Below are positions 1-19,126 of a DNA stretch of 25,526 nt, piece by piece. Origin of the DNA: a virus (Duplodnaviria; Heunggongvirae; Uroviricota; Caudoviricetes); IMG/VR virus record IMGVR_UViG_2571042636_000011, one strand, 5' to 3'. Each line of letters opens with the position of its first letter. Position 1 is the first letter of the stretch. The notes below the pieces were generated by a model that saw nothing but the letters and a program-made list of their open reading frames with translations, ran no database searches and was not told the origin of the DNA. The translations under genes and the position numbers were made by a program.

Positions 1-1053
1 TTACGGGGTAATGCCAACCGCTGCCGCCACTTTGTCGCCACTTGGCAGCGTTGCCAGAGGATTGAAACGAAGCGCCGTTTCCAGATGATCCGGTGCCAGA
101 TGTGCGTAACGCATAGTCATTTTTATATCGTGGTGTCCGAGAATTTTTTGTAAGGCCAGAATGTTTCCACCCGACATCATGAAGTGCGCCGCAAACGTAT
201 GGCGCAGAACGTGTGTGAGTTGACCGCGAGGGAGCACGATAGACGTTTTTTCCATCACGGATAAAAATTGAAAATAACAGTCTGTGAAGAAATTGAACCC
301 ATCAAGCGCCATGATCTCTTCGTAAAGCTCTTTACTGATAGGGATGCTTCTGTTTTTCTTCCCCTTCGTTCTTACAAAGGTAATTCGGTATTTGGTCACC
401 TGTGAGCGGGTAAGATTTACGGCTTCACGCCAGCGTGCGCCAGTGCTTAAGCATATCTTAACTACCAGTGCCAGAATTGGGTCCTGACGTTTACAATCAG
501 CCAGCAATTCAACAATCTGCTCATGGGTAAGCCATGCCATCTCTTTTTCTGCGATGGTGAATTTTCGCATGTTCTCCAGTGGGTTCGGATACGACCATTC
601 GCCCAGGCGGGATAGTTCGCTAAAAACACTACTAAGATAGCTTTGCTCCAGGTTAATAGTGACTGGGCTTGCTCCTTTTTTCCATTTCTCGCTGAAGTAG
701 ATCTCACCCGTCAGGCGTTTATCTCGATAGTGGGCAAACATTTTAGATGTGAGATCGGTTGCAAGGGGATTGCCCAGAGCGTCAACCATCAACAGCAATT
801 TGTCATAGACATGCTGCCCAGCGGTTAGAGATTTACCATGTAGTTTGAACCATAGCTCAACTACGTCTTTCAGTGTTCGACGATCCACTGATTCACCCAG
901 CCAGGGCTTTGCTTCGGTTTCTTCCATCGTGTGGCGCTCAAAAGCCAGAGCTTCGCCTTTGGTGGCGAATTGTTTACGCACACGACGCCCACTACGTCCG
1001 GCGGGGTAACATTCGCAAAGCCATTTCCCTGTGGTGAGTTTTCGTACTGCCAT
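1..1053 (-). CDS. int: Tyrosine site-specific integrase (phage 186/P2 Int family), about 350 aa
   Basis: ORF 1..1209(-). From the internal Met the protein begins MAVRKLTTGKWLCECYPAG..., which matches my recollection of the 186 Int N-terminus, so the start is placed at ATG 1053..1051 with GGAGGG about 10 nt upstream. C-terminal tyrosine-recombinase signature ...THVLRHTFAAHFMMSGGNILALQKILGHHDIKMTMRYAHL. Stop TAA at 3..1. Confidence 0.9.
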   Translation of the reverse strand: MAVRKLTTGKWLCECYPAGRSGRRVRKQFATKGEALAFERHTMEETEAKPWLGESVDRRTLKDVVELWFKLHGKSLTAGQHVYDKLLLMVDALGNPLATDLTSKMFAHYRDKRLTGEIYFSEKWKKGASPVTINLEQSYLSSVFSELSRLGEWSYPNPLENMRKFTIAEKEMAWLTHEQIVELLADCKRQDPILALVVKICLSTGARWREAVNLTRSQVTKYRITFVRTKGKKNRSIPISKELYEEIMALDGFNFFTDCYFQFLSVMEKTSIVLPRGQLTHVLRHTFAAHFMMSGGNILALQKILGHHDIKMTMRYAHLAPDHLETALRFNPLATLPSGDKVAAAVGITP

Positions 1054-1241
1054 AAAAAATGCCCTCCAGTAGAGAGCATTTTTACTGTATGTATAACCAG
1101 TGTCAATGTATGAAATCCTACGACCATACATCTCACTGAAGCCATAATGAAGTTGGCTATTCTTTTTGCTATGTGAGCATGTAACTTTTGCGGTTAACCT
1201 GCGGCTCATTTTTATTTTAGACGCAGATATAAAAGCAAAAG

Positions 1242-1433
1242 TTATCGTGAGTTTTTAGTACAGATTTTTTTGGATTTACTAATAGTTCCATCATTGCAAA
1301 CGAATTTGCCATCTGAGGTACAGTGAGAAACACCTCCCTTTTTCCCTGAGCAGGGATAATTTCTAGCATAGGTAGTTAGTGGGTTTAATAACAAAGAACA
1401 TGACAAAACCACAAAAAATACCTTACCAAGCAT
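1242..1433 (-). CDS. Small secreted cysteine-rich peptide (63-aa precursor, predicted about 40-aa mature peptide with 4 Cys); function unknown
   Basis: ATG 1433..1431 preceded by GGGAGG about 5 nt upstream on the minus strand. N-terminus [23 protein letters not shown] looks like a Sec signal peptide (basic n-region, hydrophobic core, TYA cleavage motif). Mature part [40 protein letters not shown]. Sits between cI and int in the lysogenic transcription unit. Confidence 0.5.
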
Positions 1434-1448
1434 AGTTTCCTCCCGGTA

Positions 1449-2105
1449 CTATTTAACATACTTGACTGTTAAACTTATAATTTTACCAATTATTTCAATG
1501 TCTTCTATCTTGCATTCGAAGGCTCTGTTTCCACCCTCGACGAAGATTCTTCCACCGGGTAAACGAGTAATGTCACGGATCGTTATTTCGCCATCAATAC
1601 TTATTACCCATTTACCATCACGTATATCATCAAATTCTTTATCACAAATAAATTCAGAATTGTTATCTGTGATGACAAAAGGTTTTTTAAACGTAGAGGG
1701 TAGAAATTCCTTATCAAAAATATAAAAACCGTCTTTCTGCAATGCTCCATCAGACAATAAATATTTTTCTACTTCTATAGTATTTGTATTTGCTGATGCT
1801 TGCTTTGAACCATGCCCTGTTGTTAGCCAATTAAGCGAGGTGCCGGTTTCAAGGGCGCACTGGATTACCCAATCTGCTGGAAAAATATCACGCATATAGC
1901 GCGTTGCCATGGTGCTCTTAGAAACACCTAAATGATCACAGAGAGCCTGACGGGTACCGAACCCATATGCTTCAACTAAACGTTCTATGGCTTTCTTACC
2001 GCCGCTATTGAAATCCACAAGTCCTCCAAAGAAATCCAAAATTCGTTGACAGATTCCAAAAGCGATCTTAAAGTTGAACCAGAAGTGTTCTTTTGGAGCC
2101 TTCAC
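1449..2105 (-). CDS. cI: Immunity repressor CI (phage 186 CI type)
   Basis: 218-aa ORF. Segment ...ERLVEAYGFGTRQALCDHLGVSKSTMATRYMRD...CALETGTSLNWLTTG resembles the 186 CI N-terminal helix-turn-helix region as I remember it. Transcribed divergently from apl/cII as in 186. Start in the ORF track is GTG 2105 with no clear SD, so the exact start is uncertain. Confidence 0.8.
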   Translation of the reverse strand: MKAPKEHFWFNFKIAFGICQRILDFFGGLVDFNSGGKKAIERLVEAYGFGTRQALCDHLGVSKSTMATRYMRDIFPADWVIQCALETGTSLNWLTTGHGSKQASANTNTIEVEKYLLSDGALQKDGFYIFDKEFLPSTFKKPFVITDNNSEFICDKEFDDIRDGKWVISIDGEITIRDITRLPGGRIFVEGGNRAFECKIEDIEIIGKIISLTVKYVK

Positions 2106-2163
2106 TACTAATCACGACAAACAACGGCTCGCCACAAGCCATATCTAGAAGGAATGTTGCCTT

Positions 2164-2367
2164 ATGACACCTAACATTTCAATTACTCTGAATACACCAC
2201 ATGTCACAATCGAACGTTATAGCGAACTGACTGGCCTTTCTATTGATACGATTAACGACATGTTGGCTGATGGCCGACTACCTCGTCATCGTCTTCGTAA
2301 AGACAAAAAACGTGAAAAGGTAATGATTAACCTGGCTGCTCTGACTGTTGATGCTTTGTCTGCTTAA
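2164..2367 (+). CDS. apl: Apl/Cox-like small DNA-binding excisionase and switch regulator
   Basis: 67-aa ORF, ATG 2164, first gene of the rightward early operon opposite cI, basic C-terminus ([15 protein letters not shown]). Assignment rests on position and size by analogy to 186 apl / P2 cox, not on recognised sequence identity. Confidence 0.55.
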
Positions 2368-2431
2368 TAGACGTCTATTTTCGCAATAAGACGCTGAGTT
2401 CGATTTTGCGATAAGTTCGGAGTTGAAAACC

Positions 2432-2941
2432 ATGTTTGATTACCAAGTTTCCAAACATCCACATTTTGATGAAGCCTGTCGTGCATTCGCACTGCGCCAC
2501 AATCTGGTGCAACTGGCAGAACGTGCGGGCATGAATGTGCAGATTCTGCGGAACAAGCTGAACCCAGCTCAACCTCATTTATTAACCGCACCAGAAATCT
2601 GGCTGCTTACCGATCTGACTGAAGATTCAACGTTGGTAGATGGTTTTCTGGCACAGATTCACTGCCTGCCATGCGTACCAATTAATGAGGTGGCAAAAGA
2701 GAAACTGCCACATTACGTCATGAGTGCAACCGCAGAGATCGGGCGTGTTGCTGCAGGTGCGGTATCTGGCGATGTAAAAACCAGTGCAGGTCGTCGTGAT
2801 GCTATCAGCAGCATTAACTCTGTAACACGACTGATGGCGTTGGCTGCTGTTTCATTGCAGGCCCGTTTACAGGCTAACCCTGCGATGGCGAGTGCAGTTG
2901 ATACCGTGACTGGCCTCGGTGCTTCATTCGGTTTGCTGTGA
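2432..2941 (+). CDS. cII: CII-like lysogeny-establishment transcriptional activator (phage 186 CII type)
   Basis: Protein [49 protein letters not shown]...[25 protein letters not shown]...[21 protein letters not shown] matches my recollection of 186 CII closely. ATG at 2432 with GGAG 9 nt upstream; the ORF track begins at an upstream TTG 2423. Confidence 0.8.
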
Positions 2942-2948
2942 GGTGCTT

Positions 2949-3245
2949 ATGCTGACGAAAGAACCATCATTTGCATCGCTGCTGGTAAAACAAAGCCCGG
3001 CAATGCACTACGGTCACGGCTGGATCACGGGTGAGGATGGAAAACGCTGGCATCCATGTCATTCACAAGATGAATTGCTGTCTGAATTGACCACGAGGAA
3101 ACGGAGAAAGTCCAAATGTATGCGGCAGAAAGTGAAGTGGTTTATCAGTTTCGTTACAGAGGGGAGAGTTATTCAGTACCTGAAGATGATTTGCTCTGTT
3201 GCTATCCGTCATTGTCGGGCGATGGCAGTTACTTTTTCGCGTTAA
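2949..3245 (+). CDS. Hypothetical early protein (position of 186 fil / P2 orf78)
   Basis: ATG 2949 (MLTKEPSFASLLVKQSPAMHYGHGWITGEDGKRWHPC...) with AGGTG upstream. The N-terminal about 55 aa look protein-like; the C-terminal part (KRRKSK...) overlaps the next ORF in another frame and looks low-complexity, so the true extent is uncertain. Confidence 0.35.
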   Translation: MLTKEPSFASLLVKQSPAMHYGHGWITGEDGKRWHPCHSQDELLSELTTRKRRKSKCMRQKVKWFISFVTEGRVIQYLKMICSVAIRHCRAMAVTFSR

Positions 3246-4005: not shown

Positions 4006-4232
4006 TGGCTGATGCAATGGATCTCGTACAGCAGCGCGTTGAAGAAGAACGCCAGCGCCATATCCGTGCTGCCCGTGCCAAAACGCCGGGCGTGTCCCGC
4101 GTGCTTTGCATTGAGTGTGAAGCGCCAATTCCGCCAGCACGCCGCCGCGCCATTCCAGGTGTGCAGCTTTGCATTACCTGTCAGGAAATCGCAGAGCTGA
4201 AAGGCAAACATTACAACGGAGGTGCTGTATGA
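4005..4232 (+). CDS. TraR/DksA-family C4 zinc-finger protein (P2 orf82-like)
   Basis: 75 aa with CxxC...CxxC (CIECEAPIPPARRRAIPGVQLCITCQ), typical of phage and plasmid TraR/DksA-like proteins. AGGAG 7 nt upstream of ATG 4005. Stop TGA overlaps the dam start (ATGA at 4229..4232). Confidence 0.7.
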   Translation: MADAMDLVQQRVEEERQRHIRAARAKTPGVSRVLCIECEAPIPPARRRAIPGVQLCITCQEIAELKGKHYNGGAV

Positions 4233-5086
4233 GCACCATCCTGAAATGGGCGGGAAATAAAACCGCCGTAATGTCCGAACTGAAAAAACATCTTCCAGCT
4301 GGCCCGCGACTGGTTGAACCTTTCGCGGGTTCCTGTGCTGTGATGATGGAGACGGATTATCCCAGCTATCTGGTTGCGGATATTAATCCTGATTTAATCA
4401 ACCTCTATAAAAAGGTTGCCGCTGATTGTGAATCGTTTATATCTCGCGCCAGAGTTTTATTTAAGGAAGCAAACAGGGAGGTGGCTTATTACAACATAAG
4501 GCAGGAGTTTAATTACTCAACTGAAATTACTGATTTCATGAAAGCGGTATATTTCCTGTATCTCAATCGTCACGGTTACCGTGGGTTATGTCGCTATAAC
4601 AAGAGCGGGCATTTCAACATTCCCTACGGTAATTATAAAAATCCGTATTTCCCTGAAAAAGAAATTCGCGCATTTGCAGAGAAAGCCCAACGAGCAACGT
4701 TTATCTGCGCCAGCTTTGATGAAACGCTGGCGATGTTGAAGGCGGGGGATGTGGTGTATTGCGATCCGCCGTATGACGGTACGTTTTCCAGCTATCACAC
4801 TGATGGTTTCACTGAAGATGACCAGTATCACCTGGCATCCGTTCTTGAACATCGGTCATCAGAAGGACATCCGGTCATTGTTTCTAACAGTGACACATCC
4901 CTGATCCGTTCGCTGTATCGCAATTTTACTCACCACTACATCAAGGCAAAACGCAGCATCGGCGTAGCAGCTGGTGAGAGTAAATCTGCAACAGAAATCA
5001 TCGCTGTTTCTGGGGCGCGCTGCTGGGTGGGATTTGATCCTTCGCGTGGCGTGGATAGTTCTGCCGTGTACGGAGTACGTGCATGA
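4229..5086 (+). CDS. dam: DNA adenine (N6) methyltransferase, Dam family
   Basis: Start [11 protein letters not shown] (Dam motif I, KWAGGK-like) with GGAGG upstream of ATG 4229. Catalytic motif DPPY present ([10 protein letters not shown]). Length about 285 aa. Stop overlaps the start of the A gene (ATGA). Confidence 0.85.
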
Positions 5087-7497
5087 GACATGCTGATATG
5101 AACAACTGCAGCGGCTTTAACGAGGCCGCCGCAGCATTCTCATGGAACAGCCCGAAAAAGGCGATTAACCCTTATCTGGACCCGGCGGAAGTTGCGCCGG
5201 TTTCTGCGCTTTCAAACCTGATCACTCTGTACGCTGCCGATAACAAGCAGGAACAACTGCGCCGCGAGGCACTGAGTGATCAGGTCTGGGAGCGTTATTT
5301 CTTTAATGAATCCCGTGATCCTGTCCAGCGCGAAATGGAGCAGGATAAGCTCATTAGCCGGGCAAAGCTGGTGCATGAGCAGCAGCGTTTTAATCCGGAC
5401 ATGGTCATACTGGCGGACGTTAACGCCCAGCCTTCCCATATCAGCAAGCCGCTGATGCAACGTATTGAATACTTCAGCAGCCTGGGCAGGCCAAAGGCTT
5501 ATTCCCGCTATTTGCGTGAGACGATTAAACCATGTCTGGAACGACTAGAGCATGTACGCGACAGCCAGCTATCTGCATCTTTTCGTTTTATGGCAAGCCA
5601 TGAAGGGCTGGACGGCCTGCTGATCTTGCCTGAAATGAGTCAGGATCAGGTGAAGCGCCTGTCTACCCTTGTTGCCGCGCATATGAGCATGTGCCTTGAT
5701 GCAGCTTGTGGTGATTTGTATGCCACCGATGACGTTAAGCCAGAAGAAATCCGCAAGACATGGGAAAGGGTGGCGGCGGAAACCCTGCGTCTGGATGTCA
5801 TCCCTCCTGCGTTTGAGCAACTCCGCCGGAAAAGAAACCGCCGTAAACCCGTACCCTATGAACTCATTCCGGGTTCGCTGGCGCGTATGTTGTGCGCCGA
5901 CTGGTGGTATCGGAAATTATGGAAGATGCGTTTCGAATGGCGGGAAGAGCAGTTGCGTGCTGTTTGCCTGGTCAGCAAAAAAGCATCTCCCTATGTCAGC
6001 TATGAAGCCGTGATGCATAAACGTGAGCAGCGCCGTAAGTCGCTGGAGTTTTTCCGTTCTCATGAACTGGTGAACGAAGACGGCGACACGCTGGATATGG
6101 AGGACGTGGTAAACGCCAGTAGTAGCAACCCGGCGCATCGCCGCAATGAGATGATGGCATGTGTTAAAGGTCTGGAGCTTATCGCGGAAATGCGCGGTGA
6201 CTGCGCCGTTTTCTACACCATCACCTGTCCGTCACGTTTCCATTCCACGCTAAATAACGGCAGGCCCAACCCGAACTGGACAAATGCGACGGTAAGACAA
6301 AGCAGTGATTATCTGGTCGGCATGTTTGCTGCATTTCGTAAGGCGATGTACAAAGCCGGATTGCGCTGGTATGGCGTGCGGGTGGCTGAGCCGCATCATG
6401 ACGGTACAGTTCACTGGCACCTGTTGTGTTTTATGCGCAAAAAAGATCGCCGCGCCATTACTGCTTTGTTGCGTAAGTTTGCCATTCGTGAAGACCGCGA
6501 GGAGCTGGGTAATAACACAGGACCACGCTTTAAGTCTGAGCTGATAAACCCGCGCAAAGGTACACCAACAAGCTACATCGCGAAATACATCAGTAAGAAC
6601 ATTGACGGGCGTGGTCTGGCTGGCGAGATCAGCAAGGAAACGGGTAAATCTCTGCGTGATAACGCTGAATACGTTAATGCCTGGGCGTCTCTGCATCGTG
6701 TTCAGCAATTCCGCTTCTTTGGCATTCCGGGGCGTCAGGCTTACCGTGAACTGCGATTGCTGGCTGGTCAGGCGGCAAGGCAACAGGGTGACAAAAAAGC
6801 AGGTGCGCCGGTACTGGATAACCCGCGCCTTGATGCCATTCTGGCTGCAGCTGATGCTGGTTGCTTTGCCACCTACATCATGAAGCAGGGCGGCGTACTG
6901 GTTCCCCGTAAATATCACCTCATCAGAACCGCTTATGAAATCAACGAAGAGCCGACCGCCTATGGCGATCACGGTATTCGTATTTATGGCATCTGGTCAC
7001 CCATTGCAGAGGGCAAGATCTGCACTCATGCAGTGAAGTGGAAAATGGTCCGTAAAGCCGTTGACGTTCAGGAGGCGGCAGCCGACCAGGGCGCTTGCGC
7101 CCCTTGGACTCGTGGCAATAACTGTCCCCTTGCTGAAAATTTGTACCAACAAGGGAAAGACAAATCAGCTGATGGAGATACCAGAACGGATATCACCCGT
7201 ATGGATGACAAGGAGTTGCACGATTACCTGCACAGTATGAGCAAAAAAGAGCGCCGGGAACTGGCAGCAAGGTTACGCCTGGTGAAACCGAAACGGCGTA
7301 AAGACTACAAACAGCGAATTACAGATCATCAGCGACAGCAGCTCGTGTATGAACTGAAGTCCAGGGGATTTGATGGCAGCGAGAAAGAGGTCGATTTACT
7401 CCTTCGCGGCGGCAGTATTCCGTCAGGAGCAGGCCTGCGTATCTTCTATCGGAACCAGCGTTTGCAGGAAGATGATAAGTGGCGGAACCTGTATTAA
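5083..7497 (+). CDS. A: Rolling-circle replication initiator endonuclease (P2 gpA / 186 RepA family)
   Basis: 804-aa ORF after the early genes. Contains an HxH metal-binding motif ([11 protein letters not shown]) and a tyrosine-containing region ([17 protein letters not shown]), as in P2 A-type nickases. GGAG 7 nt upstream of ATG 5083. Confidence 0.9.
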
Positions 7498-7589
7498 TTA
7501 CGCGGGTTAACAATTCGTGCTCTTAATAATACCAGGCATTTCTGGCTGATGAACGTAAAAAAACGTTTTACATCAGTAAGATTATTATA

Positions 7590-7609
7590 TACTGTAAATA
7601 TAAACAGTG
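7590..7609. promoter_or_regulatory. LexA (SOS) box overlapping the promoter of the tum/dinI-like operon
   Basis: tACTGTaaatataaACAGtg is a perfect CTGT-N8-ACAG with an AT-rich spacer, a close match to the E. coli LexA consensus TACTGTATATATATACAGTA. It lies about 40 nt upstream of the GGAGG/ATG at 7641..7652; -35-like TTTACA at 7567..7572. Confidence 0.6.
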
Positions 7610-7649
7610 GTTATGTATACAGTATCGCTTTGGTGTCATAGGAGGAAAG

Positions 7650-7838
7650 ATGCAGGACTATTTTTTGGAGTCTTTGAAGCTCCAGCGCATTGATTTTTTT
7701 CTTAAGCTTGTAGCGGCTAGTGAGTGTAGTGATGAAGAGAAGGGGCTGGCTCTGCAGTGGGTTTCTGAATTGACTGATGAACTCATGGCAAAAATCAGAA
7801 CCCACGAATACAACCGCTCAATGGATGTCATCAGTTGA
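7650..7838 (+). CDS. Small SOS-controlled protein, candidate Tum-like antirepressor
   Basis: 62-aa ORF directly downstream of the LexA box, GGAGG 4 nt upstream of ATG 7650. Position corresponds to the LexA-regulated tum operon of phage 186. The sequence itself is not recognised, so the function is inferred from context. Confidence 0.4.
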   Translation: MQDYFLESLKLQRIDFFLKLVAASECSDEEKGLALQWVSELTDELMAKIRTHEYNRSMDVIS

Positions 7839-7848
7839 GGTGACTTTT

Positions 7849-8082
7849 ATGCGCATTGAAATAATGATCGATAAAGAGCAGAAGATTAGCCAGTCTACCC
7901 TGGACGCCCTTGAATCCGAGCTTTACCGCAATCTGCGCCCCCTGTATCCCAAAACGGTAATTCGTATCCGCAAAGGTAGCTCTAACGGTGTGGAACTGAC
8001 CGGACTGCAACTGGATGAAGAAAGAAAACAAGTGATGAAAATTATGCAGAAAGTGTGGGAAGACGACAGCTGGCTGCATTAA
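7849..8082 (+). CDS. dinI: DinI-family protein (SOS-response modulator)
   Basis: From ATG 7849 (GAGG 8 nt upstream): MRIEIMIDKEQKISQSTLDALESELYRNLRPLYPKTVIRIRKGSSNGVELTGLQLDEERKQVMKIMQKVWEDDSWLH. This aligns along its length with E. coli DinI as I remember it (MRIEVTIAK...DALAGEL...ETWESADDW). The ORF track gives a longer ORF from 7777. Confidence 0.75.
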   Translation: MRIEIMIDKEQKISQSTLDALESELYRNLRPLYPKTVIRIRKGSSNGVELTGLQLDEERKQVMKIMQKVWEDDSWLH

Positions 8083-8193
8083 GAAACGTTGCCTCCAGGA
8101 GGATTCATTCTGATGGGGGCTAGTTTGGGCAACGAGTGAAACGAGGCGTAAGGTGGGCGGGCATTTTGATAAGTGATCGTCCGCTTTGTGCTA

Positions 8194-8213
8194 GAAGCGG
8201 TCGTTACCGCTTC
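8194..8213. terminator. Hairpin between the convergent dinI-like and HerA-like genes (possible bidirectional terminator)
   Basis: GAAGCGGT-cgtt-ACCGCTTC, a perfect 8-bp stem with 4-nt loop. Only a weak T-run follows, so intrinsic terminator function is uncertain. Confidence 0.3.
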
Positions 8214-8226
8214 AGCACTTTGTTAA

Positions 8227-10086
8227 TTAGTGAGGGCTGGTTATTACGTAGTCGCTCTGGTCATCCTCTCCCAGCCTCTCAGGTATTAAATCGTTGAAGG
8301 AAATAGTATTACTCTTAGGTTTTTCTTCAATTGGAAGTTCAGCTACCCTTAATTTGAGCGGCATGGGGCAGACGATACCACTAAAAATACAGGTTCCTGT
8401 AGATAGCGTTGGAATCGACTCTTCAGTCAGTCGATCTATATATGATACTGATTTTTCAATTGCGTACAGATCATTCTGATTAATAAGGCGATGAATAAAA
8501 TAATTGTGTGCTTGGGATATGATTGTCGACGATATATCATTAGGGCGTTGACTGGAAATTGTGATAAAAACTCCAAATTTTCTCCCCTCCTTTATGATTT
8601 CCTCAAAAGTTTCCAGACGATAATCTCTCCAACTTTCCGTTTCCCGAAAAGAAGTATTAGACAAAATATTGTGGGCTTCATCTATAATGATGTGCAGTGT
8701 AGATTTCTCTGTAGACATTTTCTTCATATTGTAAGCCCACTTGGCTATCAAAAGAGGAAGCGTTTTTTTCATGGTTATATTAACCATATTTAGATTCACA
8801 ACCGTGAAATTATGTTCACCCCAAAAGTCAGACTGTCCGGAAGTATCAAATATTTTGGCTATATCTTTACGGTTAGCACTCATTCTATTTATAACTGGTG
8901 AAATATGTTCAGGGTTAGACTTGTTAGATAAATATTCCTGTATTAACTGTAAGTACATAAAGTCCAACAGTTCTTCAATCATATCAGTTTTAAATGAAAA
9001 ATTGCTTGCAAGACTGAATAGATAGGAGCGCTCAGTATCAGCTTCTGTATTGAAAATACTACCACCCCTCAATTTCCATTTATATGCAGTTGAATGATAC
9101 TCAAGATCAGATATAAGTTCTGGGTCATCTTTGAAAATTGGGCTAAGAAACTGATTTATAGTATCGCATTTGGGTTTGTCGCTACTAAAGAGATTTTGTC
9201 TGACTTTTTTCTTCAGGATATTGCGCATAAACTCAAGAGGATTATCAGCAGTCATCACTTTCTTGCGAAACTCAAGAACTCTCTTCAGGAAAGGTTTCTG
9301 TGTTTTGTCTGTTGCATCGGTTAGAACTGAGAGCATATCATGCTCAAGTAGAACCTCTCTGGGTAGAGGAAGTTTGTCACCATTTGCATGGTGCGTGTTG
9401 AGATTATAAACCGTCTTCTCGTCAGTAATACAGCGTGGGGCAGTATATTCTCCATTAAAGTCGAATAGAATAAATTTGCATCTTTCACTAAAGTGGTTGC
9501 CGAGAATATGTTTAACTTGGGCAATACCTGCTTTGTATAGCGCGGCTAGGGTATTTGACTTTCCGCTGCCTGTATTACCGAAAATGGCAATGTGGGAATT
9601 AATAAGACCATTGATTGGTAGTGCAATTTCAATATCTTCAAGATCTGTACGAGTAAACCTCATTACAGTTTCGTCTGCATCAGCTATCTGATGAACCGTC
9701 TGTATCATCTCTTCAGTTACCACGAAGACTTCATTGCCGATGAGAGGTAGTTCACGCGAACCACCAATGAAGCAACCAGTACGATCAATGTAACCCGTAA
9801 GAGTAGAGGTCAGGTATCGCCGATATCGCCAGGCATCACTGCCGCTCCCAGCGAGATGTTTTTCCTCAATGATTCGTTCCGCTTCAACCTTGCCGATCAG
9901 GCTCATGAAACCTTTTTTGATCTCAATGAAGCTACCCACTGATACATTTCTTAGAACTTTTCCCTGATAAAACAAGTCACTGAGATTTTTGTTTTTATCG
10001 ACCAAAATTGTCACAGCGCGTCCAGAAACCTCACAGACTTCGCCTATACGGAGCACCGCTTCCTCTTCAGTAAAATGCCTGCTCAT
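8227..10086 (-). CDS. herA: HerA-like ATPase (HAS-barrel plus RecA-like P-loop NTPase), predicted partner of the upstream SIR2-like protein
   Basis: About 619 aa from ATG 10086..10084, which overlaps the SIR2 stop (ATGA); GGGAGG upstream. Walker A AIFGNTGSGKSNT and Walker B LHIIIDEAHN. N-terminal beta-rich segment (RIGEVCEVSGRAVTILVDK...GSFIEIKKGFMSLIGKVEAERI) is consistent with a HerA HAS barrel. AT-rich codon usage unlike the phage core. Confidence 0.75.
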   Translation of the reverse strand: MSRHFTEEEAVLRIGEVCEVSGRAVTILVDKNKNLSDLFYQGKVLRNVSVGSFIEIKKGFMSLIGKVEAERIIEEKHLAGSGSDAWRYRRYLTSTLTGYIDRTGCFIGGSRELPLIGNEVFVVTEEMIQTVHQIADADETVMRFTRTDLEDIEIALPINGLINSHIAIFGNTGSGKSNTLAALYKAGIAQVKHILGNHFSERCKFILFDFNGEYTAPRCITDEKTVYNLNTHHANGDKLPLPREVLLEHDMLSVLTDATDKTQKPFLKRVLEFRKKVMTADNPLEFMRNILKKKVRQNLFSSDKPKCDTINQFLSPIFKDDPELISDLEYHSTAYKWKLRGGSIFNTEADTERSYLFSLASNFSFKTDMIEELLDFMYLQLIQEYLSNKSNPEHISPVINRMSANRKDIAKIFDTSGQSDFWGEHNFTVVNLNMVNITMKKTLPLLIAKWAYNMKKMSTEKSTLHIIIDEAHNILSNTSFRETESWRDYRLETFEEIIKEGRKFGVFITISSQRPNDISSTIISQAHNYFIHRLINQNDLYAIEKSVSYIDRLTEESIPTLSTGTCIFSGIVCPMPLKLRVAELPIEEKPKSNTISFNDLIPERLGEDDQSDYVITSPH

Positions 10087-11126
10087 CTCGAGCCTCCCAG
10101 ATAGCACGTGATAATGTTATTCATTACCGGAAAATCAACATTTCTTCCCGGCCGATAAATAATCTCTACGTTTGAGTAATCCCGAAATTTCTCCATAAAG
10201 CCGTTAACACTGGCCTCATCGAAAGCAAAGATCAGTAGCTTCAGGGTGGCGTTGCGCAGGGCTTTTTTAGTTATCGTTTCAATGTGCTCATCAGCAAACG
10301 AGAACCCAAAGACAATTAGTAAAGTTGCTTCTTTATCAAGCTCGTTGGAATAGGTTCTCAGTAAATCATAATAAACGTTCTGTAGTAGAGTCTCTTTAAA
10401 CTTCTCCTTACGTGGAAGAATAAGTGCATGAGCAAGTACCCATCCTTTCATTTCGGCTAGGGTGGGAAAGTCAAGCGGCTTAATATCTGCAATACGATAA
10501 ATGATTTTCCCTTTAGAATGCTGCCAAGAGAGCGAACCATGAAGTTTTATAAGGTTAACAGTAGGAAGCTCAACTTTATAATTATACAGATTTCCGGTTG
10601 CACTTACAGAATGATTAAAGCTACCCGCATCAAATTCCGCATCTCCCAAAATACTTGCTCTTCTATTGAATCCATCATTAAAAAGAATATTGTTATTACG
10701 TGTGGCAGCTTCTTCGATGAATAAATCATAATTAGTTGTAAAAACGTTAATACGCCTCGGAAGTAGGCCAGTTCGGCGGCGGGTCAGTATCTTTTCCAGT
10801 GAAGACATAAATGCATCATAATTTGCACGGGTACATTCCAAATCGGTGATCACCTGAGGTGCGAAGGGGGTGCCGTAGCCGCGCTTCAACATGCATTCAT
10901 GAGGTAGCCAAACATCTGACAAAAAGTCAGCTGCCATCCTTAAGTATTCATCTTCCTGTTCATCATTAATAAGCTGCTGAAGATCCGTTTCGATTGTCCC
11001 CAGTACTTTAATCGCTGGGAGGGATGCACCTGATCCGATGAGAAAGTTAATGTTAGCTGACTGAAATATCCGCTCTAAGTAGTCTCGGTCACTATCGTTA
11101 CCGTAGTATGCGCGCTTGACTGCCAT
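10083..11126 (-). CDS. SIR2-like (sirtuin-fold, predicted NAD+-consuming) defence effector protein
   Basis: About 347 aa from ATG 11126..11124 (AAGGA SD; the ORF track starts at TTG 11141). Gly-rich NAD-binding loop FLIGSGASLP, the TTNYD motif (VFTTNYDLFIEEA) and a candidate catalytic His in KLHGSLSW, as in defence-associated SIR2 domains. Coupled to the HerA-like gene. Confidence 0.75.
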   Translation of the reverse strand: MAVKRAYYGNDSDRDYLERIFQSANINFLIGSGASLPAIKVLGTIETDLQQLINDEQEDEYLRMAADFLSDVWLPHECMLKRGYGTPFAPQVITDLECTRANYDAFMSSLEKILTRRRTGLLPRRINVFTTNYDLFIEEAATRNNNILFNDGFNRRASILGDAEFDAGSFNHSVSATGNLYNYKVELPTVNLIKLHGSLSWQHSKGKIIYRIADIKPLDFPTLAEMKGWVLAHALILPRKEKFKETLLQNVYYDLLRTYSNELDKEATLLIVFGFSFADEHIETITKKALRNATLKLLIFAFDEASVNGFMEKFRDYSNVEIIYRPGRNVDFPVMNNIITCYLGGSR

Positions 11127-11426
11127 CTTATCCTTCCACAAAACATTGGATTAGTCTGTAATTTATTTAATCTTAACGCCGAGCTCAATACTTTAACATC
11201 ACTTCTTCTGGCGATTGCTATGAGCCCTTCTTGATAAAAAGTTCGATCGGGAAACTGATCCTTTATGCCACAAGTTTTCTAGCTATCCTCAAAAAATTGG
11301 TGTTAAAACTGTGCCAACAAAGTTGCAAGGTTCGCTTCTCGCTCACAGCGAACTTTCATCTTTGTAAACCCGTATGATTCGCTTTTCAGCAGTCATTCAG
11401 ATACGGATTTACGCTTCCCTTGGCAG

Positions 11427-11456
11427 CGCATGACTATGACGCATGAGATCGCATGA
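11427..11456. repeat. Three direct repeats of CGCATGA at 13- and 10-nt spacing
   Basis: cgcatgactatgacgcatgagatcgcatga. Copies start at 11427, 11440 and 11450, in the non-coding region about 100 bp left of the candidate cos sequence. Function unknown. Confidence 0.4.
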
Positions 11457-11551
11457 TCGTTTAAGGATCGTTTTTGCTGAAGTCAGCCAGAACTGGCGTG
11501 CTTTTGCTTATGTCATGCAGGTGCATGAAAACCACTACATAAAGCGGGCAG

Positions 11552-11570
11552 GCGTGGCGGGGATACGAGC
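11552..11570. other. Candidate cohesive-end (cos) site of the P2/186 type
   Basis: GGCGTGGCGGGGATACGAG followed by GC-rich CGCGCGC. The first 13 nt match the start of the 19-nt P2/186 cos overhang as I remember it (P2 GGCGAGGCGGGGAAAGCAC). It lies in the prophage position between the right-end accessory genes and Q. Identification is from memory and unverified. Confidence 0.3.
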
Positions 11571-11650
11571 GCGCGCAATGCTATGATCTGGCTCTTTCAA
11601 AACTGTTAACGGTTCTTCACATTCTTAAATGATCATGGTAGCTTAAGCAT

Positions 11651-11781
11651 GCACATGTAGGCAGATTTGTTGGTTGTGGTATCGCAATCAGTGATCTAAA
11701 TGTTAGATGGATTCGCCTTCTGACATCCTTGTAGCCATTCTTGGGCTGTCCTATGCTTTGCGTAAGAGTGCCTACATGTGC
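11651..11781 (+). ncRNA. msr-msd: Retron msr-msd non-coding RNA (template for msDNA), bounded by a1/a2 inverted repeats
   Basis: 13-bp inverted repeat GCACATGTAGGCA (11651..11663) and TGCCTACATGTGC (11769..11781) flanks about 105 nt, immediately upstream of the RT gene (starts 11817), which is the canonical a1-msr-msd-a2-RT arrangement. The 5' part (CATGTAGGCAGATTTGTTGGTTGTG..ATCGCAA.CAGTG) resembles an enterobacterial retron msr that I recall. Exact ends are approximate. Confidence 0.5.
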
Positions 11782-11816
11782 CTACCCTAACTGATAATCA
11801 AGGTTGATTTTTAGAT

Positions 11817-13574
11817 ATGGCACCCCTATCAATTTTAGAACGTTTACAAAACGCTGCTAACAGGCAAGATTTGGCTAGTATCTTGAATCTTAAAACTGCT
11901 TTTCTTACGGATGTTATTTATCGTTTAAAAGCTGAAACGCAGTATACACAATTTACTATCCCTAAAAAAAACGGAGCGCCGAGAGTCATATCAGCACCTA
12001 CCACTAAGCTCAAAGATATTCAACGTAGATTAGCTGATGTTTTATATTTATGTCGTGCAGAAATTTATAAAAAATATAATATTAATCCAGTTTTATCTCA
12101 TGGGTTTGAAAAAGAAAAGTCAATTATTACGAATGCTGAACGGCATAGAGGTAAAACGCTACTACTAAATATAGACCTTGAGGATTATTTTGATAGTTTT
12201 AATTTTGGACGTGTTAGAGGTTTTTTCTTATCAAACAGAGATTTTAGATTAAATAATACTGTTGCTACAACGATCGCACAAATTGCATGTTTTCAGAATG
12301 GACTTCCTCAAGGAAGCCCATGCTCTCCAATTATAAGTAACTTAATCAGTGGAATTCTTGATATAAGATTATCAAAGTTAGCAAAGAAATACGGATGCAA
12401 TTATTCACGGTATGCTGATGATCTTACATTTTCAACTAATAAAAAAACATTTCCAAAAGAGATTGCTGATGTTGGCGGAGAGTCTGTAACCCTAAGTCCA
12501 ACTTTAATTAAAGAGATTATAAAGGCTGGCTTTAAAATAAATGATAAAAAGACAAGGGTTTGTTATAAAACATCACGACAAGATGTTACTGGGTTGACTG
12601 TTAATAAAAAAGTGAATGTTGGCAAAGAATATGCAAAAGTAACGCGTGCCATGGCTCATTCTCTTTATAAAGATGGTTCTTTTGTTATTGTTACTGAATC
12701 AGGAAAGATTGAAAAAGGTACATGTGCTAAATTAGAAGGCCGTTTTGGATTTATTGACTCAATAGATAAATATAATAATTTAAAACTAAAGAACGCAAGA
12801 CAGTTGGAAAAGTACCAAAGTGTAAATCATGGATTAAACTACACTGCAAAATTGAATTCGAGAGAAAAAGCCTACAGTTATTTTCTATACTATAAAAATT
12901 TTCATGGAATGGAAATGCCAACAATACTCACTGAGGGTAAAACAGACCGTGTATATTTAAAGTGTGCTTTGAAGTCATTGGCGAATTCATATCCTTTATT
13001 GTTTAATTCTTCTGATGATAGCTCTAAAAATGAGTATCGTGTTAATTTTTTTAAAGCAACTGAAAAAACAAGCTATTTTCTTGACATTTCTGGCGGTGCT
13101 ACAGACTTCAAAAGATTTATATTAAGATACCAAGAACAAAAAAAGAGGTTCGAGAAATTTAAACCAAAGCACCCTGTTATTATGCTTCTTGATAATGACT
13201 CAGGCCCTAAAGATTTATTAAATCACTTAAAGGATAAAGTAAAAAATTGTCCAAATGATGTTGATACTATTCGTAAGGCAAGGTATACCCACATATTTGA
13301 CAATCTCTATTTGTTATTAACACCATTGCTTCCTGGAGGGAAAGAGTCTTGTATGGAGGATTTATTTGATAGCACGGTACTATCAACGGTGCTTGATGGA
13401 AAGACATTTAATAAATCTAATGATACGGATACAAAAACAGAATATGGTAAGCATGTGTTTTCAACAAAGGTTATAAAGGCAAATTGTAAAACAATTAGTT
13501 TTGAAAAGTTTAAAGTTATTTTTGATGGTATTGAGGAAATTATTGCAGATTATTCAAAGAGGTGCAAAGTATAA
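11817..13574 (+). CDS. ret: Retron-type reverse transcriptase with a C-terminal TOPRIM-like (OLD-family-like) domain, 585 aa
   Basis: RT motifs seen in the translation: motif A LLLNIDLEDYFDSF, motif B QGLPQGSPCSPIISNL, motif C YSRYADDLTFS (YADD). C-terminal about 250 aa contain a conserved Glu motif (ILTEGKTDRVYLK) and a DxD motif (MLLDNDSGP), consistent with a TOPRIM fold. Very AT-rich codon usage. Confidence 0.9.
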   Translation: MAPLSILERLQNAANRQDLASILNLKTAFLTDVIYRLKAETQYTQFTIPKKNGAPRVISAPTTKLKDIQRRLADVLYLCRAEIYKKYNINPVLSHGFEKEKSIITNAERHRGKTLLLNIDLEDYFDSFNFGRVRGFFLSNRDFRLNNTVATTIAQIACFQNGLPQGSPCSPIISNLISGILDIRLSKLAKKYGCNYSRYADDLTFSTNKKTFPKEIADVGGESVTLSPTLIKEIIKAGFKINDKKTRVCYKTSRQDVTGLTVNKKVNVGKEYAKVTRAMAHSLYKDGSFVIVTESGKIEKGTCAKLEGRFGFIDSIDKYNNLKLKNARQLEKYQSVNHGLNYTAKLNSREKAYSYFLYYKNFHGMEMPTILTEGKTDRVYLKCALKSLANSYPLLFNSSDDSSKNEYRVNFFKATEKTSYFLDISGGATDFKRFILRYQEQKKRFEKFKPKHPVIMLLDNDSGPKDLLNHLKDKVKNCPNDVDTIRKARYTHIFDNLYLLLTPLLPGGKESCMEDLFDSTVLSTVLDGKTFNKSNDTDTKTEYGKHVFSTKVIKANCKTISFEKFKVIFDGIEEIIADYSKRCKV

Positions 13575-13585
13575 CTGTAATCACA

Positions 13586-13607
13586 GGCAAAGAGTATGCT
13601 CTTTGCC
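13586..13607 (+). terminator. Hairpin terminator between the convergent RT and Q genes
   Basis: GGCAAAGAG-tatg-CTCTTTGCC, a perfect 9-bp stem, followed by TTGTATTGT. Located 12 nt after the RT stop and 17 nt before the Q stop on the other strand. Confidence 0.5.
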
Positions 13608-13623
13608 TTGTATTGTGGGACGA

Positions 13624-14655
13624 TTACATATCTAAGTTATATTCTGTAAATGCGATAATATCTGTACCTAACCAGACATTAATCTCCTTGATCCGTTTTT
13701 GCATTGATATCAATTCGTTTCTTACGAATACTTTACTAGCCTTTTCCACATCCCCAAATCCCCCGACATTATTTGGCATTATCCCCATCATCTGTGGCGG
13801 AACGCGATGTGCTGCCATCATGTCATCCCGGCTCACGTTCTTGATATTTAGAAACTCATCCTTCGCCGCAACTTCTGACAAAGGGATGATCTGAAGGCCG
13901 TCCTTTTTGCCGTTAGGCGAGTACATAAACAGGTTGCGGAAGTTACCCGGACCTTTGGCACTTTTCATTGCATTGCGGAGGTTGTTCACGTCCTCCTGGT
14001 TCTGCGCAGCATCGGTCATGTACATGATGAAGCCTGCATGACTACCGTTAATGTAATACTTGCGGCGGAACAGCGTGGCGGACTCATTGAGCAGGGCGGA
14101 CGGAATGGCAGAAAGATAGCCGGGTAGGCCGTAGATCTCCTGGTTAATGTCCGGTTCCATCAGATGAAAAATGCTACCTTTCGTGAACTGATACGGCTGG
14201 GTTGTCATACCATATTGCACAAACCAGTAGGTATCCAGGTCTAACCCGCGTCGGGTGTATTTTGCCAGAGCAGGCTCAAGGGCGATAACTTCACCGAAGC
14301 GGTTCGTGCGTTTCTCCAGGTAGGCGTTACCAAATACCAGATAGTCCTGCACAAAACGTGAAAAAGCCTGCTGGCTGAGCAGCGGGTGAGGGATGTAGGT
14401 ACTGGTCAGAATGTTGCATTTTACTGCAATCGGTGAGCTGTGATGCACGGCAGCGCGGAAGGTTCGTGCCAGTCCGTCAAAGCTGACGGGCGGCTCATAC
14501 CAGCGGTCCATCTGTACGCATTCCATATAGTCCAGCAGTTCACGGCGGTCCAGAACAGGAACGGGATCGCCAAAGCTGAATGCTTCGGCTGAAGTCTGGC
14601 TTTTATGCTTGAGCTGATTCGTCGCCGCAGCGCGGTTTTTCTTACTCTTTCCCAT
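13624..14655 (-). CDS. Q: Portal (capsid portal vertex) protein, P2 gpQ family
   Basis: About 343 aa, the size and position of P2 Q (first packaging gene beside the cos region, transcribed leftward with P). ATG at 14655..14653; the ORF track starts at TTG 14658. Start overlaps the P stop. Confidence 0.85.
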   Translation of the reverse strand: MGKSKKNRAAATNQLKHKSQTSAEAFSFGDPVPVLDRRELLDYMECVQMDRWYEPPVSFDGLARTFRAAVHHSSPIAVKCNILTSTYIPHPLLSQQAFSRFVQDYLVFGNAYLEKRTNRFGEVIALEPALAKYTRRGLDLDTYWFVQYGMTTQPYQFTKGSIFHLMEPDINQEIYGLPGYLSAIPSALLNESATLFRRKYYINGSHAGFIMYMTDAAQNQEDVNNLRNAMKSAKGPGNFRNLFMYSPNGKKDGLQIIPLSEVAAKDEFLNIKNVSRDDMMAAHRVPPQMMGIMPNNVGGFGDVEKASKVFVRNELISMQKRIKEINVWLGTDIIAFTEYNLDM

Positions 14656-16421
14656 CAAAAAATCTCCACAATATTGCTGGTATTGGCGGATTCGCCCTGC
14701 AGCGGTTCGTTAAACAGTGCGTGCATCGTTGCCCAGGCCAGATCGGCGTGGCTGGCTTCTTCGCTGCGGCTGGCTTCATAGGTCGGGCGGTTGCCGCTGG
14801 CGGTGGTGGCGCGACGGATTGCCATGAATGACTGCGCAATGTCGGTGTGCCCGGCGTCAAACTCCAGACGGCGGTGGCTGATAATGTCGTAGGCCTTGAG
14901 TACCAGGGCGTTTTTAACATTGGGGTTGTAGACAAACTCCCGGACGGCAGGAAAGAACGCTTTCACGTTCTCATAAACCCCGTGACCAACGCCGGTTGAG
15001 TCGATACCGATATAGGTCACGTTGTACTGTTCGGTGAGTTTTTTGATGGCGTCAGCCTGGGCGCGGAAGTCCATCCCGCGCCACTGGTGACGCTCAAGAA
15101 TGCGGAACTTACCACCCGGCACGGCTGGCGGAGCCACCACCACGCATCCGGCACTGTCGCCGTTCTGCGTACCTTTTGCCGGGTCATAACCGATCCACAC
15201 TTCGCGCCAGCCAAACGGGCGTAGGGCCAGTGCATGAAAGTCGGTCCAGACTTCCCAGCTGTCCACCATGCACGCCTGCAGTTCGCTGAGCGGGAACACG
15301 GACGCGAGATCGTCCACGAACTCGCACATCAACAGGTTCTGGTATTCGTCCGGGCTGTACTCCATGCGTAGCTGGTCGAGGTCGAACAGGTTACAGCCGC
15401 CGCGCACCGCATCTTCCACGGTGACTATCTGGCGGTATTGCCCATCTGCGCACAGCAGGCCGGGGGCCAGATTGCTGTGGGACAGGTCGATGTCCACCTT
15501 GTCAGCTTTGTTGCGTCCACGGTTGAACAGCGCACCGGACCAGAACGGATAAGCACTGTGGGTCAGGCTGGATGGCGTGGAAAAATAGGTTTGTCGCCAT
15601 TTTTTGTGAATAGCCATCCCGGAAGCCACTTTGCGCAGCTCCTGGAATTTCGGTATCCAGAAATATTCATCCAGATACAGGTTGCCGTGATAACTCTGGG
15701 CCGTGCGGGCATTGGTGCCGAGGAAGTAAAGCGTGGCTCCGTTAGGAAGCACCATCGGATCGCCTTTTAGCTCCACCTCGACTTCTTTGGCGAAGTCGAT
15801 GATGTATTGTTTAAAGACGTGGGCCTGAGCCTTACTGGCAGAAAGGAAAATCTGGTTACGTCCGGTAAGCAGGGCGTCAATCAGGGCTTCACGGGCAAAA
15901 TAGAAGGTCGCGCCGATCTGGCGTGACTTCAGCAGGTTGCGGATGCGGTTGGTTTTTCCGGCTTCCCACCAGTGGCGCTGGTAGTTGAACATGGAGGAAT
16001 GGAAGATTTCTTCCAGCTTCTCAATCTGCTCATCGGTGAAAACATTCTTTTCCGGCTGACGGCGTGGGCCTTTATTGCGGTTGGCGACGTTAGGGTTTAA
16101 GTCGGCTTCGTTGCCGCCATTGTTAAACTTGCCGATCCGCGCGTGGCGCTCAGACTGGCGCGCCAGCAGGTCAATCTCTTTGAAATCTTTCCCTTCTTTG
16201 TGCTCCTTCATAATGAGCTGGCAGTAGCGTGCGGCGGTGGTGAGCTGCATCTGATCCAGCGGCCCATAGTCACCCCACTTGTCGCGTTTTTTCCAGCTGT
16301 GAACGGTTGCAACTTTCTCGCCCAGCATTTCAGCAATGCGGGCTACGCGGTATCCCTGAAAGTACAGCAGCATGGCCTGCCGACGGGGATCGAGATCTGC
16401 GGGTGTCAGTGTGGTGTTCAT
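14655..16421 (-). CDS. P: Terminase large (ATPase) subunit, P2 gpP family
   Basis: 588 aa, between Q and the divergent O gene as in P2. N-terminal HTH-like MLLYFQGYRVARIAEMLGEKVATVHSWKKR and a large nuclease/ATPase body. Confidence 0.9.
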   Translation of the reverse strand: MNTTLTPADLDPRRQAMLLYFQGYRVARIAEMLGEKVATVHSWKKRDKWGDYGPLDQMQLTTAARYCQLIMKEHKEGKDFKEIDLLARQSERHARIGKFNNGGNEADLNPNVANRNKGPRRQPEKNVFTDEQIEKLEEIFHSSMFNYQRHWWEAGKTNRIRNLLKSRQIGATFYFAREALIDALLTGRNQIFLSASKAQAHVFKQYIIDFAKEVEVELKGDPMVLPNGATLYFLGTNARTAQSYHGNLYLDEYFWIPKFQELRKVASGMAIHKKWRQTYFSTPSSLTHSAYPFWSGALFNRGRNKADKVDIDLSHSNLAPGLLCADGQYRQIVTVEDAVRGGCNLFDLDQLRMEYSPDEYQNLLMCEFVDDLASVFPLSELQACMVDSWEVWTDFHALALRPFGWREVWIGYDPAKGTQNGDSAGCVVVAPPAVPGGKFRILERHQWRGMDFRAQADAIKKLTEQYNVTYIGIDSTGVGHGVYENVKAFFPAVREFVYNPNVKNALVLKAYDIISHRRLEFDAGHTDIAQSFMAIRRATTASGNRPTYEASRSEEASHADLAWATMHALFNEPLQGESANTSNIVEIF

Positions 16422-18475: not shown

Positions 18476-19126
18476 ATGAGCCTGAGTCCCGCACGGCAGC
18501 ATCGCCTGCGCGTTCAGGCTGAACAGGCCGCCCGCGAGGGCGGCAGTGTTCGCCACGCATCGGGCTATGACCTGATGCTGCTGCAACTGGCGGAAGACCG
18601 CCGCCGTCTCAAGGGCGTTCAGTCCACGGTCAAAAAAGCGGAAATCAAGGTGGAGCTGCTGCCGAAGTACGCCGCCTGGGCAGAGGGTGTCCTGGCTGCC
18701 GGAGGCGCTCAACAGGATGACGTGCTGATGTACGTGATGCTGTGGCGCATTGATGCCGGAGATTATGCCGGAGCGCTGGAGATCGGGCGTCATGCCCTGC
18801 GTCATGGCTGGGTGATGCCGCTGGGTAACCGCAACGTGCAGACCGTGCTGGCAGAGGAAATGGCAGACGCCGCGCAGAGCGCAATGCTTGCCGCCACCGG
18901 CTTTGATGCCGATCTGTTGTTGCAGACGCTGGAGCTGACAGACGGTCTGGATATGCCGGACCAGTCACGGGCGCGTCTGCATAAAGCGATTGGCGCTGTC
19001 CTGAGTGAAAGCAATCCGGCTTCCGCCCTTAATCATCTCAACCATGCGTTACAGCTCGATCCCCGCTGTGGCGTGAAAAAAGACAAACAGCAGCTGGAGC
19101 GCAGACTGCGCAATGACAGCCGCTGA
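18476..19126 (+). CDS. M: Terminase small (endonuclease) subunit, P2 gpM family
   Basis: 216 aa, immediately after N as in P2. CCGGAG 8 nt upstream of ATG 18476. Confidence 0.8.
   Translation: MSLSPARQHRLRVQAEQAAREGGSVRHASGYDLMLLQLAEDRRRLKGVQSTVKKAEIKVELLPKYAAWAEGVLAAGGAQQDDVLMYVMLWRIDAGDYAGALEIGRHALRHGWVMPLGNRNVQTVLAEEMADAAQSAMLAATGFDADLLLQTLELTDGLDMPDQSRARLHKAIGAVLSESNPASALNHLNHALQLDPRCGVKKDKQQLERRLRNDSR

Follow-up and report, generated by a model that had tools for sequence, protein, structure and literature searches.

Dodd & Egan 1996 (Virology 219:115), as summarised in PMC6868368, placed the retrons Ec67 and Ec86 in the slot between cos and the portal gene of 186-related prophages. A wider survey of 18,150 Escherichia coli loci described a cos-proximal defence hotspot between gpA and gpQ (Rousset et al. 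2022; PMC9122126), the cargo of which includes retrons and many loci of which carry more than one system; SIR2+HerA is listed there for the analogous P4-satellite hotspot. PMC9594776 and PMC3931495 quote a '55-bp conserved cos' common to P2 and P4. The 19-mer described below has an identical published counterpart in Salmonella phage SEN8, assigned as cos during annotation only (PMC5427200), and related cos variants ending in ACGAG have been reported for Smp131 and SEN4/5.

Here we present an analysis of a 25,526-nucleotide stretch of a 186/P2-like (Peduoviridae) prophage (hereafter referred to as the window) that carries predicted defence genes on either side of a cos-like sequence. We are highly confident that positions 11551–11569 are the cos of an apparently intact 34–35 kb 186/P2-like E. 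coli prophage located between ybjL and rcdA, with the packaging and two-slot arrangement set out below. The coordinates of all features are collected in Table 1.

Table 1 Coordinates, strand and supporting evidence of features in the window
Feature	Position	Strand	Evidence or remark
Integrase	1–1209	-	
CI repressor	1449–2105	-	
Dam methylase	4169–5086	+	
Replication protein gpA	5083–7497	+	
DinI/Tum-like gene	7777–8082	+	
HerA	8227–10107	-	PADLOC PDLC04097 6e-267; Pfam DUF87
SIR2	10083–11141	-	PADLOC PDLC04080 6e-211; Pfam SIR2_2
Non-coding stretch	between SIR2 and RT-Toprim gene		675 bp
Right-end arm of cos	11425–11550	+	~126 bp; gap-free conservation in 45 loci; aligns with 186/P2 right ends
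cos core	11551–11569	+	19 nt
CGCGCG(C/T)	11570–11576	+	Last conserved bases on left-end (portal) side; variable cargo begins right after
Retron msr-msd ncRNA gene	11651–11781	+	13-nt perfect inverted repeats a1 11651–11663, a2 11769–11781
Retron RT fused to Toprim (type I-C, Ec67 family), 585 aa	11817–13574	+	PADLOC RT-Toprim_I-C 2.7e-223; PGAP
Hairpin, 10-bp stem	13585–13608	.	-16 to -18 kcal/mol; z-scores -3.6 and -4.5 on the two strands
Portal gene A+T-rich 3' end, last ~35–40 codons	13624–13750	-	Part of exchangeable portal-side module
Portal (Q/W homologue)	13624–14658	-	Pfam Phage_portal; PGAP annotation
Large terminase (P homologue), 588 aa	14655–16421	-	Pfam Terminase_6N/6C, Terminase_5; PGAP annotation
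Terminase endonuclease subunit	18476–19126		

Prophage context

Positions 7400–14000 of the window are 100% identical to E. coli PS3Tanimalfeces2 (NZ_CP180597), in which the prophage is about 34–35 kb in size, lies between ybjL and rcdA, and has a full late-gene set annotated with zero pseudogene flags. Both a 'terminase endonuclease subunit' and a 'terminase ATPase subunit' are annotated in this host record, and the Pfam matches of terminase and portal are full-length. The portal and large terminase genes are transcribed toward cos, with the late genes beyond. The gene order (gpA, DinI, cargo, cos, cargo, portal on the minus strand, terminase on the minus strand) is the same in 186 and P2. 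The cos that the first-pass annotation had proposed between two cargo blocks is thus at the place expected from P2 and 186, with the accessory genes of the replication side to one side of it and the portal gene to the other.

The cos core and its match to 186 and P2

The G+C-rich 19-nt core, GGCGTGGCGGGGATACGAG, which is the predicted 5' cohesive end, occupies 11551–11569 of the plus strand. The first-pass annotation had reported GGCGTGGCGGGGA at 11552–11570; the sequence is present, but its start is at 11551. A search of both strands returned a single exact match to GGCGWGGCGGGGA in the window, against a chance expectation of ~0.0015 for an exact match in 2 x 25.5 kb.

The comparison was made against the actual 186 and P2 phage records. 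Bases 1–19 of 186 (NC_001317), labelled 'cos; cohesive end', read GGCGTGGCGGGGAAAGCAT and are identical to the window core at 15 of 19 positions, including all of the first 13; the differences fall at core positions 14, 16, 17 and 19. The P2 cosL/cosR sequence, GGCGAGGCGGGGAAAGCAC, which is present at both ends of the P2 genome (NC_001895), matches at 14 of 19. The proposed resemblance to the P2/186 cohesive end is thereby borne out; core positions 14–19 read TACGAG in the window and AAGCAT/AAGCAC in 186 and P2.

When the circular end junctions of 186 and P2 were rebuilt and aligned with the window, the core and both flanks were in register. On the left, the window reads TGCATGAAAACCACTACATAAAGCGGGCA up to the core, where the 186 right end reads TGCATTAAAACCGACCCATAAAGTGGGCA; on the right, the bases following the core are CGCGCGC in the window and TGCGCGC in both 186 and P2. 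The upstream motif common to all three is TGCAT(G/T)AAAACC...(A/G)T(A/G)AAG(C/T)GGGC, and the downstream one is GCGCGC. As judged from these alignments, the resemblance of the core to 186 and P2 is homology, not chance. By analogy with 186, nicks are predicted on the top strand 5' of 11551 and on the bottom strand after 11569; because core positions 14–19 are unlike those of either phage, these nick positions and the length of the overhang are extrapolations.

One-sided conservation around cos

A scan for the exact 25-mer, with one genome per species, returned 44 loci on 44 contigs of other species, mostly from Enterobacterales but also from Chitinimonas and Pasteurella testudinis. Across 45 unique loci, conservation is above background from about -126 relative to cos, stays at 0.8–1.0 through the sequence elements described below, and is back at background at +26. 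The 45 loci were selected only on positions 0 to 24 (the exact 25-mer), so that conservation within these positions is true by construction, whereas what is seen further out, conservation on the upstream side and its loss downstream, is independent of the selection. The core and 126-bp arm of the window fit the consensus of the 45 loci, and the right-end arm is 85–93% identical in 91 phage records.

Within E. coli, the block at 11425–11576 is common to four prophages with different neighbours (UPEC132, RL465, A12 and the window), which diverge completely past cos+25/26. Seven further E. coli prophages with different cargo contain the identical 25–26-nt core, as do BL21 and SEN8, and the cos block is common to about 1800 E. 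coli records. Because conservation extends ~126 bp on the replication-gene side and only ~7 bp on the portal side, the packaging signal is strongly one-sided. From general cos biology and the cos sequence conserved between P2 and P4, we infer that terminase would bind the upstream arm.

The arm contains five GCATG/TGCAT elements, at about -124, -111, -100, -37 and -29 relative to cos, and a palindrome, GCCAGAACTGGC, at 11486–11497 (about -65 to -54). These elements are likely protein-binding sites, presumably putative terminase recognition sites; no existing annotation was found for them, and Rfam searches of the whole window at gathering thresholds and of 11400–11900 at E<=1 yielded no family for either the cos block or the retron RNA. 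In relatives, the outer positions of the palindrome are changed on both of its arms, to GCCCGCCAG..CTGGCGGGC where the window has GTCAGCCAG..CTGGCGTG. The elements are kept even in the Chitinimonas loci, though the rest of the arm there has diverged. The exact 25-nt core occurs on five contigs of Chitinimonas sp. BJB300, a member of the Betaproteobacteria (L015–L018 and L039), and on three contigs of C. taiwanensis (L021, L042 and L050). Most of these contigs lack a portal gene within reach, and in two the downstream sequence has only a weak gpA-like match (30% identity); the contigs could represent several P2-like prophages, or satellites borrowing the same cos.

On a 4.5-kb contig assigned to the metagenome-assembled genome 'Bacillota bacterium' (JAEYLX010000057; L052), cos is accompanied by a DinI fragment with 100% and a portal gene with 93% identity to the window; the contig is almost certainly a piece of an enterobacterial prophage that was mis-binned. 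The 774-kb replicon labelled 'plasmid unnamed6' of Klebsiella sp. WOUb02 (L028) contains a prophage with this type of cos.

About 90 bp to the left of the arm (11333–11424) recur at ~95% identity in over 130 further E. coli prophages lacking SIR2/HerA, and the segment is also present in A12, ECCTRSRTH03, 13E0780 and BL21; a subset of phages thus has a longer conserved cos-proximal segment. On the other side, the stretch just past the core, +27 to +45 in the window (11577–11595), was compared with L043, L048, L052, L053, L056 and L057. Relatives with an empty leader carry CAACGGGGTGAAATGGTGAA there, several cargo-bearing loci keep a GGTGAAA-like motif, and (A/C)GGTGG lies at roughly this position in 186 and P2. 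The element seems dispensable, since the window and most cargo-bearing loci are without it.

SIR2/HerA in the right-end slot

The SIR2 and HerA genes overlap at 10083–10107 and form a predicted defence pair transcribed away from cos. They occupy the right-end accessory slot, as the first-pass annotation had suggested, at the place where P2 has old/tin and in the same orientation. The distance from the DinI stop codon to cos is 207–208 nt when this slot is empty and 3468 nt in the window. The module, delimited at 8150–11420, is intact in 13 E. coli genomes.

The retron and the cos-to-portal slot

On the portal side of cos lies a retron with an intact RT reading frame. The RT matches the PDB entry 'Retron Ec67 protein' (5e-217) at 57% identity; with an identity of only this level, we rejected the retron being Ec67 itself. 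In the absence of an Rfam match, the msr-msd was assigned from its a1/a2 repeat, its fold (-54.8 kcal/mol, z-score -5.0) and its similarity to DNA upstream of Ec67-family RT genes: its 131 nt are 77–80% identical to the DNA preceding other such genes outside prophages. A CAGA lies directly 3' of a1, as in Ec67, in which this sequence is the context of the branch G (PMC6868368, a review). Approximately half of the retron-bearing genomes, at 99.5–99.6% identity, have the RT annotated as two pieces (a 500-aa protein and a 73-aa 'hypothetical protein'), among them E. coli 13E0780 (L011, 5218–6974), 13E0725, 2014C-3061 and several OkiPb strains, which suggests a frameshifted, possibly inactive Toprim end.

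The first-pass annotation had the retron inserted into a leader of about 150 bp between cos and Q. The location stands, whereas the insertion does not: homology to relatives ends at cos+25/26 and resumes only within the final ~35 portal codons, so that the leader has been replaced by the retron. Measured from cos up to the stop codon of the portal gene, the leader has a length of 167 nt (P2), 176 nt (186) or 173–246 nt ('empty' relatives); the corresponding distance in the window is 2054 nt. Among the 28 species-level loci with a portal gene within reach, the slot is empty (173–246 nt) in five and occupied, by 0.63–3.0 kb of extra DNA, in the other 23. Its cargo includes a 469-aa hypothetical protein, a P-loop NTPase, an AAA ATPase, a hypothetical protein with HIRAN, a hypothetical protein with HNH (SEN8), retron Ec86 and the retron of the window.

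The gap between the RT and portal genes is, as had been noted, 49 bp long (13575–13623) and filled by a hairpin. It was considered as an alternative location for cos and rejected, being this short and hairpin-filled and having zero similarity to cos. The hairpin stands in place of the tW/tQ terminator of 186 and P2 and has no good T-run on either strand. Its homology to tW/tQ was likewise rejected: the sequences are dissimilar, and every cargo type has a hairpin of its own.

The A+T-rich variable DNA runs ~125 nt into the portal gene, the 3' end of which has a G+C content of 32–36%, as opposed to ~50% upstream. Over the last ~35 codons, prophages that are 90–95% identical upstream show 40–50% DNA divergence; the protein pattern of the tail is kept, with the motif NELxPLQKRxxExNxWL. 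Loci with the same cargo have an identical portal 3' end. Each portal-side module thus brings its own portal C-terminal tail and hairpin, and this covariation with the slot cargo places the exchange boundary inside an essential gene.

Separate histories of the two cargos

At >=99% identity, 14 E. coli genomes carry the retron of the window, and 13 carry its SIR2/HerA pair at >=99.8% identity, yet only two genomes, PS3Tanimalfeces2 and ES2, have both. The genes in the other slot differ: in ECCTRSRTH03 the retron lies to the right of cos and a HEPN protein to the left, in 13E0780 a frameshifted copy of the retron on the right is paired with a small ORF on the left, and in EC812A1 and 89-3156 SIR2/HerA is on the left, with other genes on the right. 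The gpA–gpQ interval as a whole is correspondingly variable, with ~1800 E. coli records having the flanks and cos block and only two having the whole interval. These distributions uphold the first-pass suggestion that the two cargos were acquired independently.

The junction between the two histories was located by ungapped mismatch maps. Relative to ECCTRSRTH03, the window has 3 mismatches in the 2300 nt on the right side of cos; going left from cos, the first is met at -38. The comparison with EC812A1 and 89-3156 shows a single mismatch over 450 nt on the left side, and divergence sets in at +25/26. This places the meeting point of the two lineages within -37 to +24 of cos. The arms on either side follow the same division: the portal–terminase–capsid arm is 98.8% identical to ECCTRSRTH03 and 90.7–93.6% identical to the SIR2/HerA phages, whereas the early-gene arm is 98.0–98.5% identical to the SIR2/HerA phages and 96.7% identical to ECCTRSRTH03. 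On these sequence comparisons, the present combination looks like the product of a crossover at or near cos between two single-cargo phages, and not of two small cassette insertions; such a crossover is a more specific form of two independent acquisitions.

We tentatively raise the possibility, which we regard as less likely than not, that the ~60-bp invariant cos core might be the preferred crossover joint, perhaps stimulated by the double-strand ends made by terminase, and that the two arms might reassort as two independent units with the slot usually occupied. If so, right-end cargo would move with the early-gene arm, and left-end cargo would move with the late-gene arm, including the swapped portal C-terminal tail and terminator. 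The cos-to-portal slot would then be a usually filled slot (23/28 loci) rather than an occasional retron site.

Packaging model and alternatives

In the model that we favour, the terminase encoded by 14655–16421 and 18476–19126 would recognise the ~126-bp arm at 11425–11550, by homology with P2 and 186, and would introduce nicks staggered by 19 nt. The left end of the virion DNA would begin with the core, followed by the 7 conserved bases and then the retron; the right end would carry SIR2/HerA and then the conserved arm. Since almost all of the conserved signal is on the right-end side, the DNA between cos+26 and the final ~35 portal codons is free to vary and constitutes a second cargo slot.

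It is unlikely that the site is a relic in a defective prophage, no longer cut or used. Many P2-like prophages of E. coli are degraded, and truncated replication, portal or terminase genes are present in BL21, RL465 and EC812A1. However, the prophage in the host record is complete at 34–35 kb, with all late genes and no pseudogene flags; its core and 126-bp arm agree with the consensus of the 45 loci, and its terminase and portal genes match their Pfam families over the full length. Somewhat less probable still is a true cos at which the cut positions or overhang depart from the 186/P2 model, for example through a shifted nick. The 3' third of the 19-mer, which differs from 186 at positions 14, 16, 17 and 19, leaves room for this, as do the other P2-like variants ending in ACGAG, all of which were assigned by analogy (PMC3931495, PMC5261728). 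Among the records of the phage collection, none with experimentally defined ends at the TACGAG variant was found; only SEN8 is linearised at this variant, while Cartapus, Midge and others end near the block and are uninformative. Likewise, no virion end mapping for the TACGAG variant was found in the records or literature searched. Both flanks, AAAG(C/T)GGGCA before and GCGCGC after the core, nevertheless align without gaps to 186 and P2, and the spacing between the flanking conserved elements is thus unchanged, which speaks against this alternative.

That SIR2/HerA and the retron arrived as one block, with cos incidentally inside it, is very improbable and is already contradicted. The two cargos are adjacent, and in PS3Tanimalfeces2 and ES2 they occur together at 100% identity. 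Yet this SIR2/HerA pair is absent from 12 of the 14 retron genomes, and this retron from 11 of the 13 SIR2/HerA genomes. The other left partners of the retron are the HEPN protein or the small ORF, and the other right partners of SIR2/HerA are the 469-aa protein or the hypothetical protein with HIRAN. In addition, the cos block between the cargos is backbone, common to ~1800 E. coli records.

Under the favoured model of a cos at 11551–11569, the placement of cos fixes the map of the virion chromosome, with the defence cargos at its two physical ends; it is only on circularisation, or in the prophage, that the cargos come to lie side by side. The one-sided packaging signal explains how so much variable DNA is accommodated, the portal side being free from +26. 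For annotation, the 'gpA–gpQ hotspot' consists of two slots with cos between them.

Comparison with known systems

Both the type of cos site and the retron-behind-cos arrangement are already in the literature, and the finding restates known biology; its practical value is therefore the correct annotation of the element. Three points may go slightly beyond the published work consulted: most lineages with this type of cos have an occupied portal-side slot, the portal-side modules include the portal 3' end, and the junction between lineages lies inside the invariant cos core.

The cos of the window is like those of 186 and P2 in its TGCAT repeats, the AAAGYGGGC upstream and GCGCGC downstream of the core, and its map position. 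However, the 186/P2 leader and tW/tQ terminator past +26 are missing in the window. In Salmonella phage SEN8 (NC_047753, Felsduovirus), the first 26 nt, ggcgtggcggggatacgagcgcgcgc, are identical to the window and are annotated as 'putative cos site'. Between cos and the portal gene, SEN8 carries two genes, for a hypothetical protein and an HNH endonuclease, that are unlike the cargo of the window.

The arrangement is shared with the Ec86 and Ec67 prophages, in which, according to the summary in PMC6868368, the retron also lies between cos and portal in place of a short leader. In BL21, a 19-mer identical to the window and the CGCGCGC that follows it (L058, position 3998) are succeeded by the Ec86 effector, msr-msd, RT and portal. 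The systems differ in composition, Ec86 having an upstream effector gene and a short RT where the window retron has an RT-Toprim. They also differ in extent: the replaced stretch in the window reaches into the portal 3' end, rather than stopping at a terminator. Finally, Rousset et al. 2022 treat the gpA–gpQ interval as a single locus, whereas the cos of the window splits this interval into two independently assorting slots.
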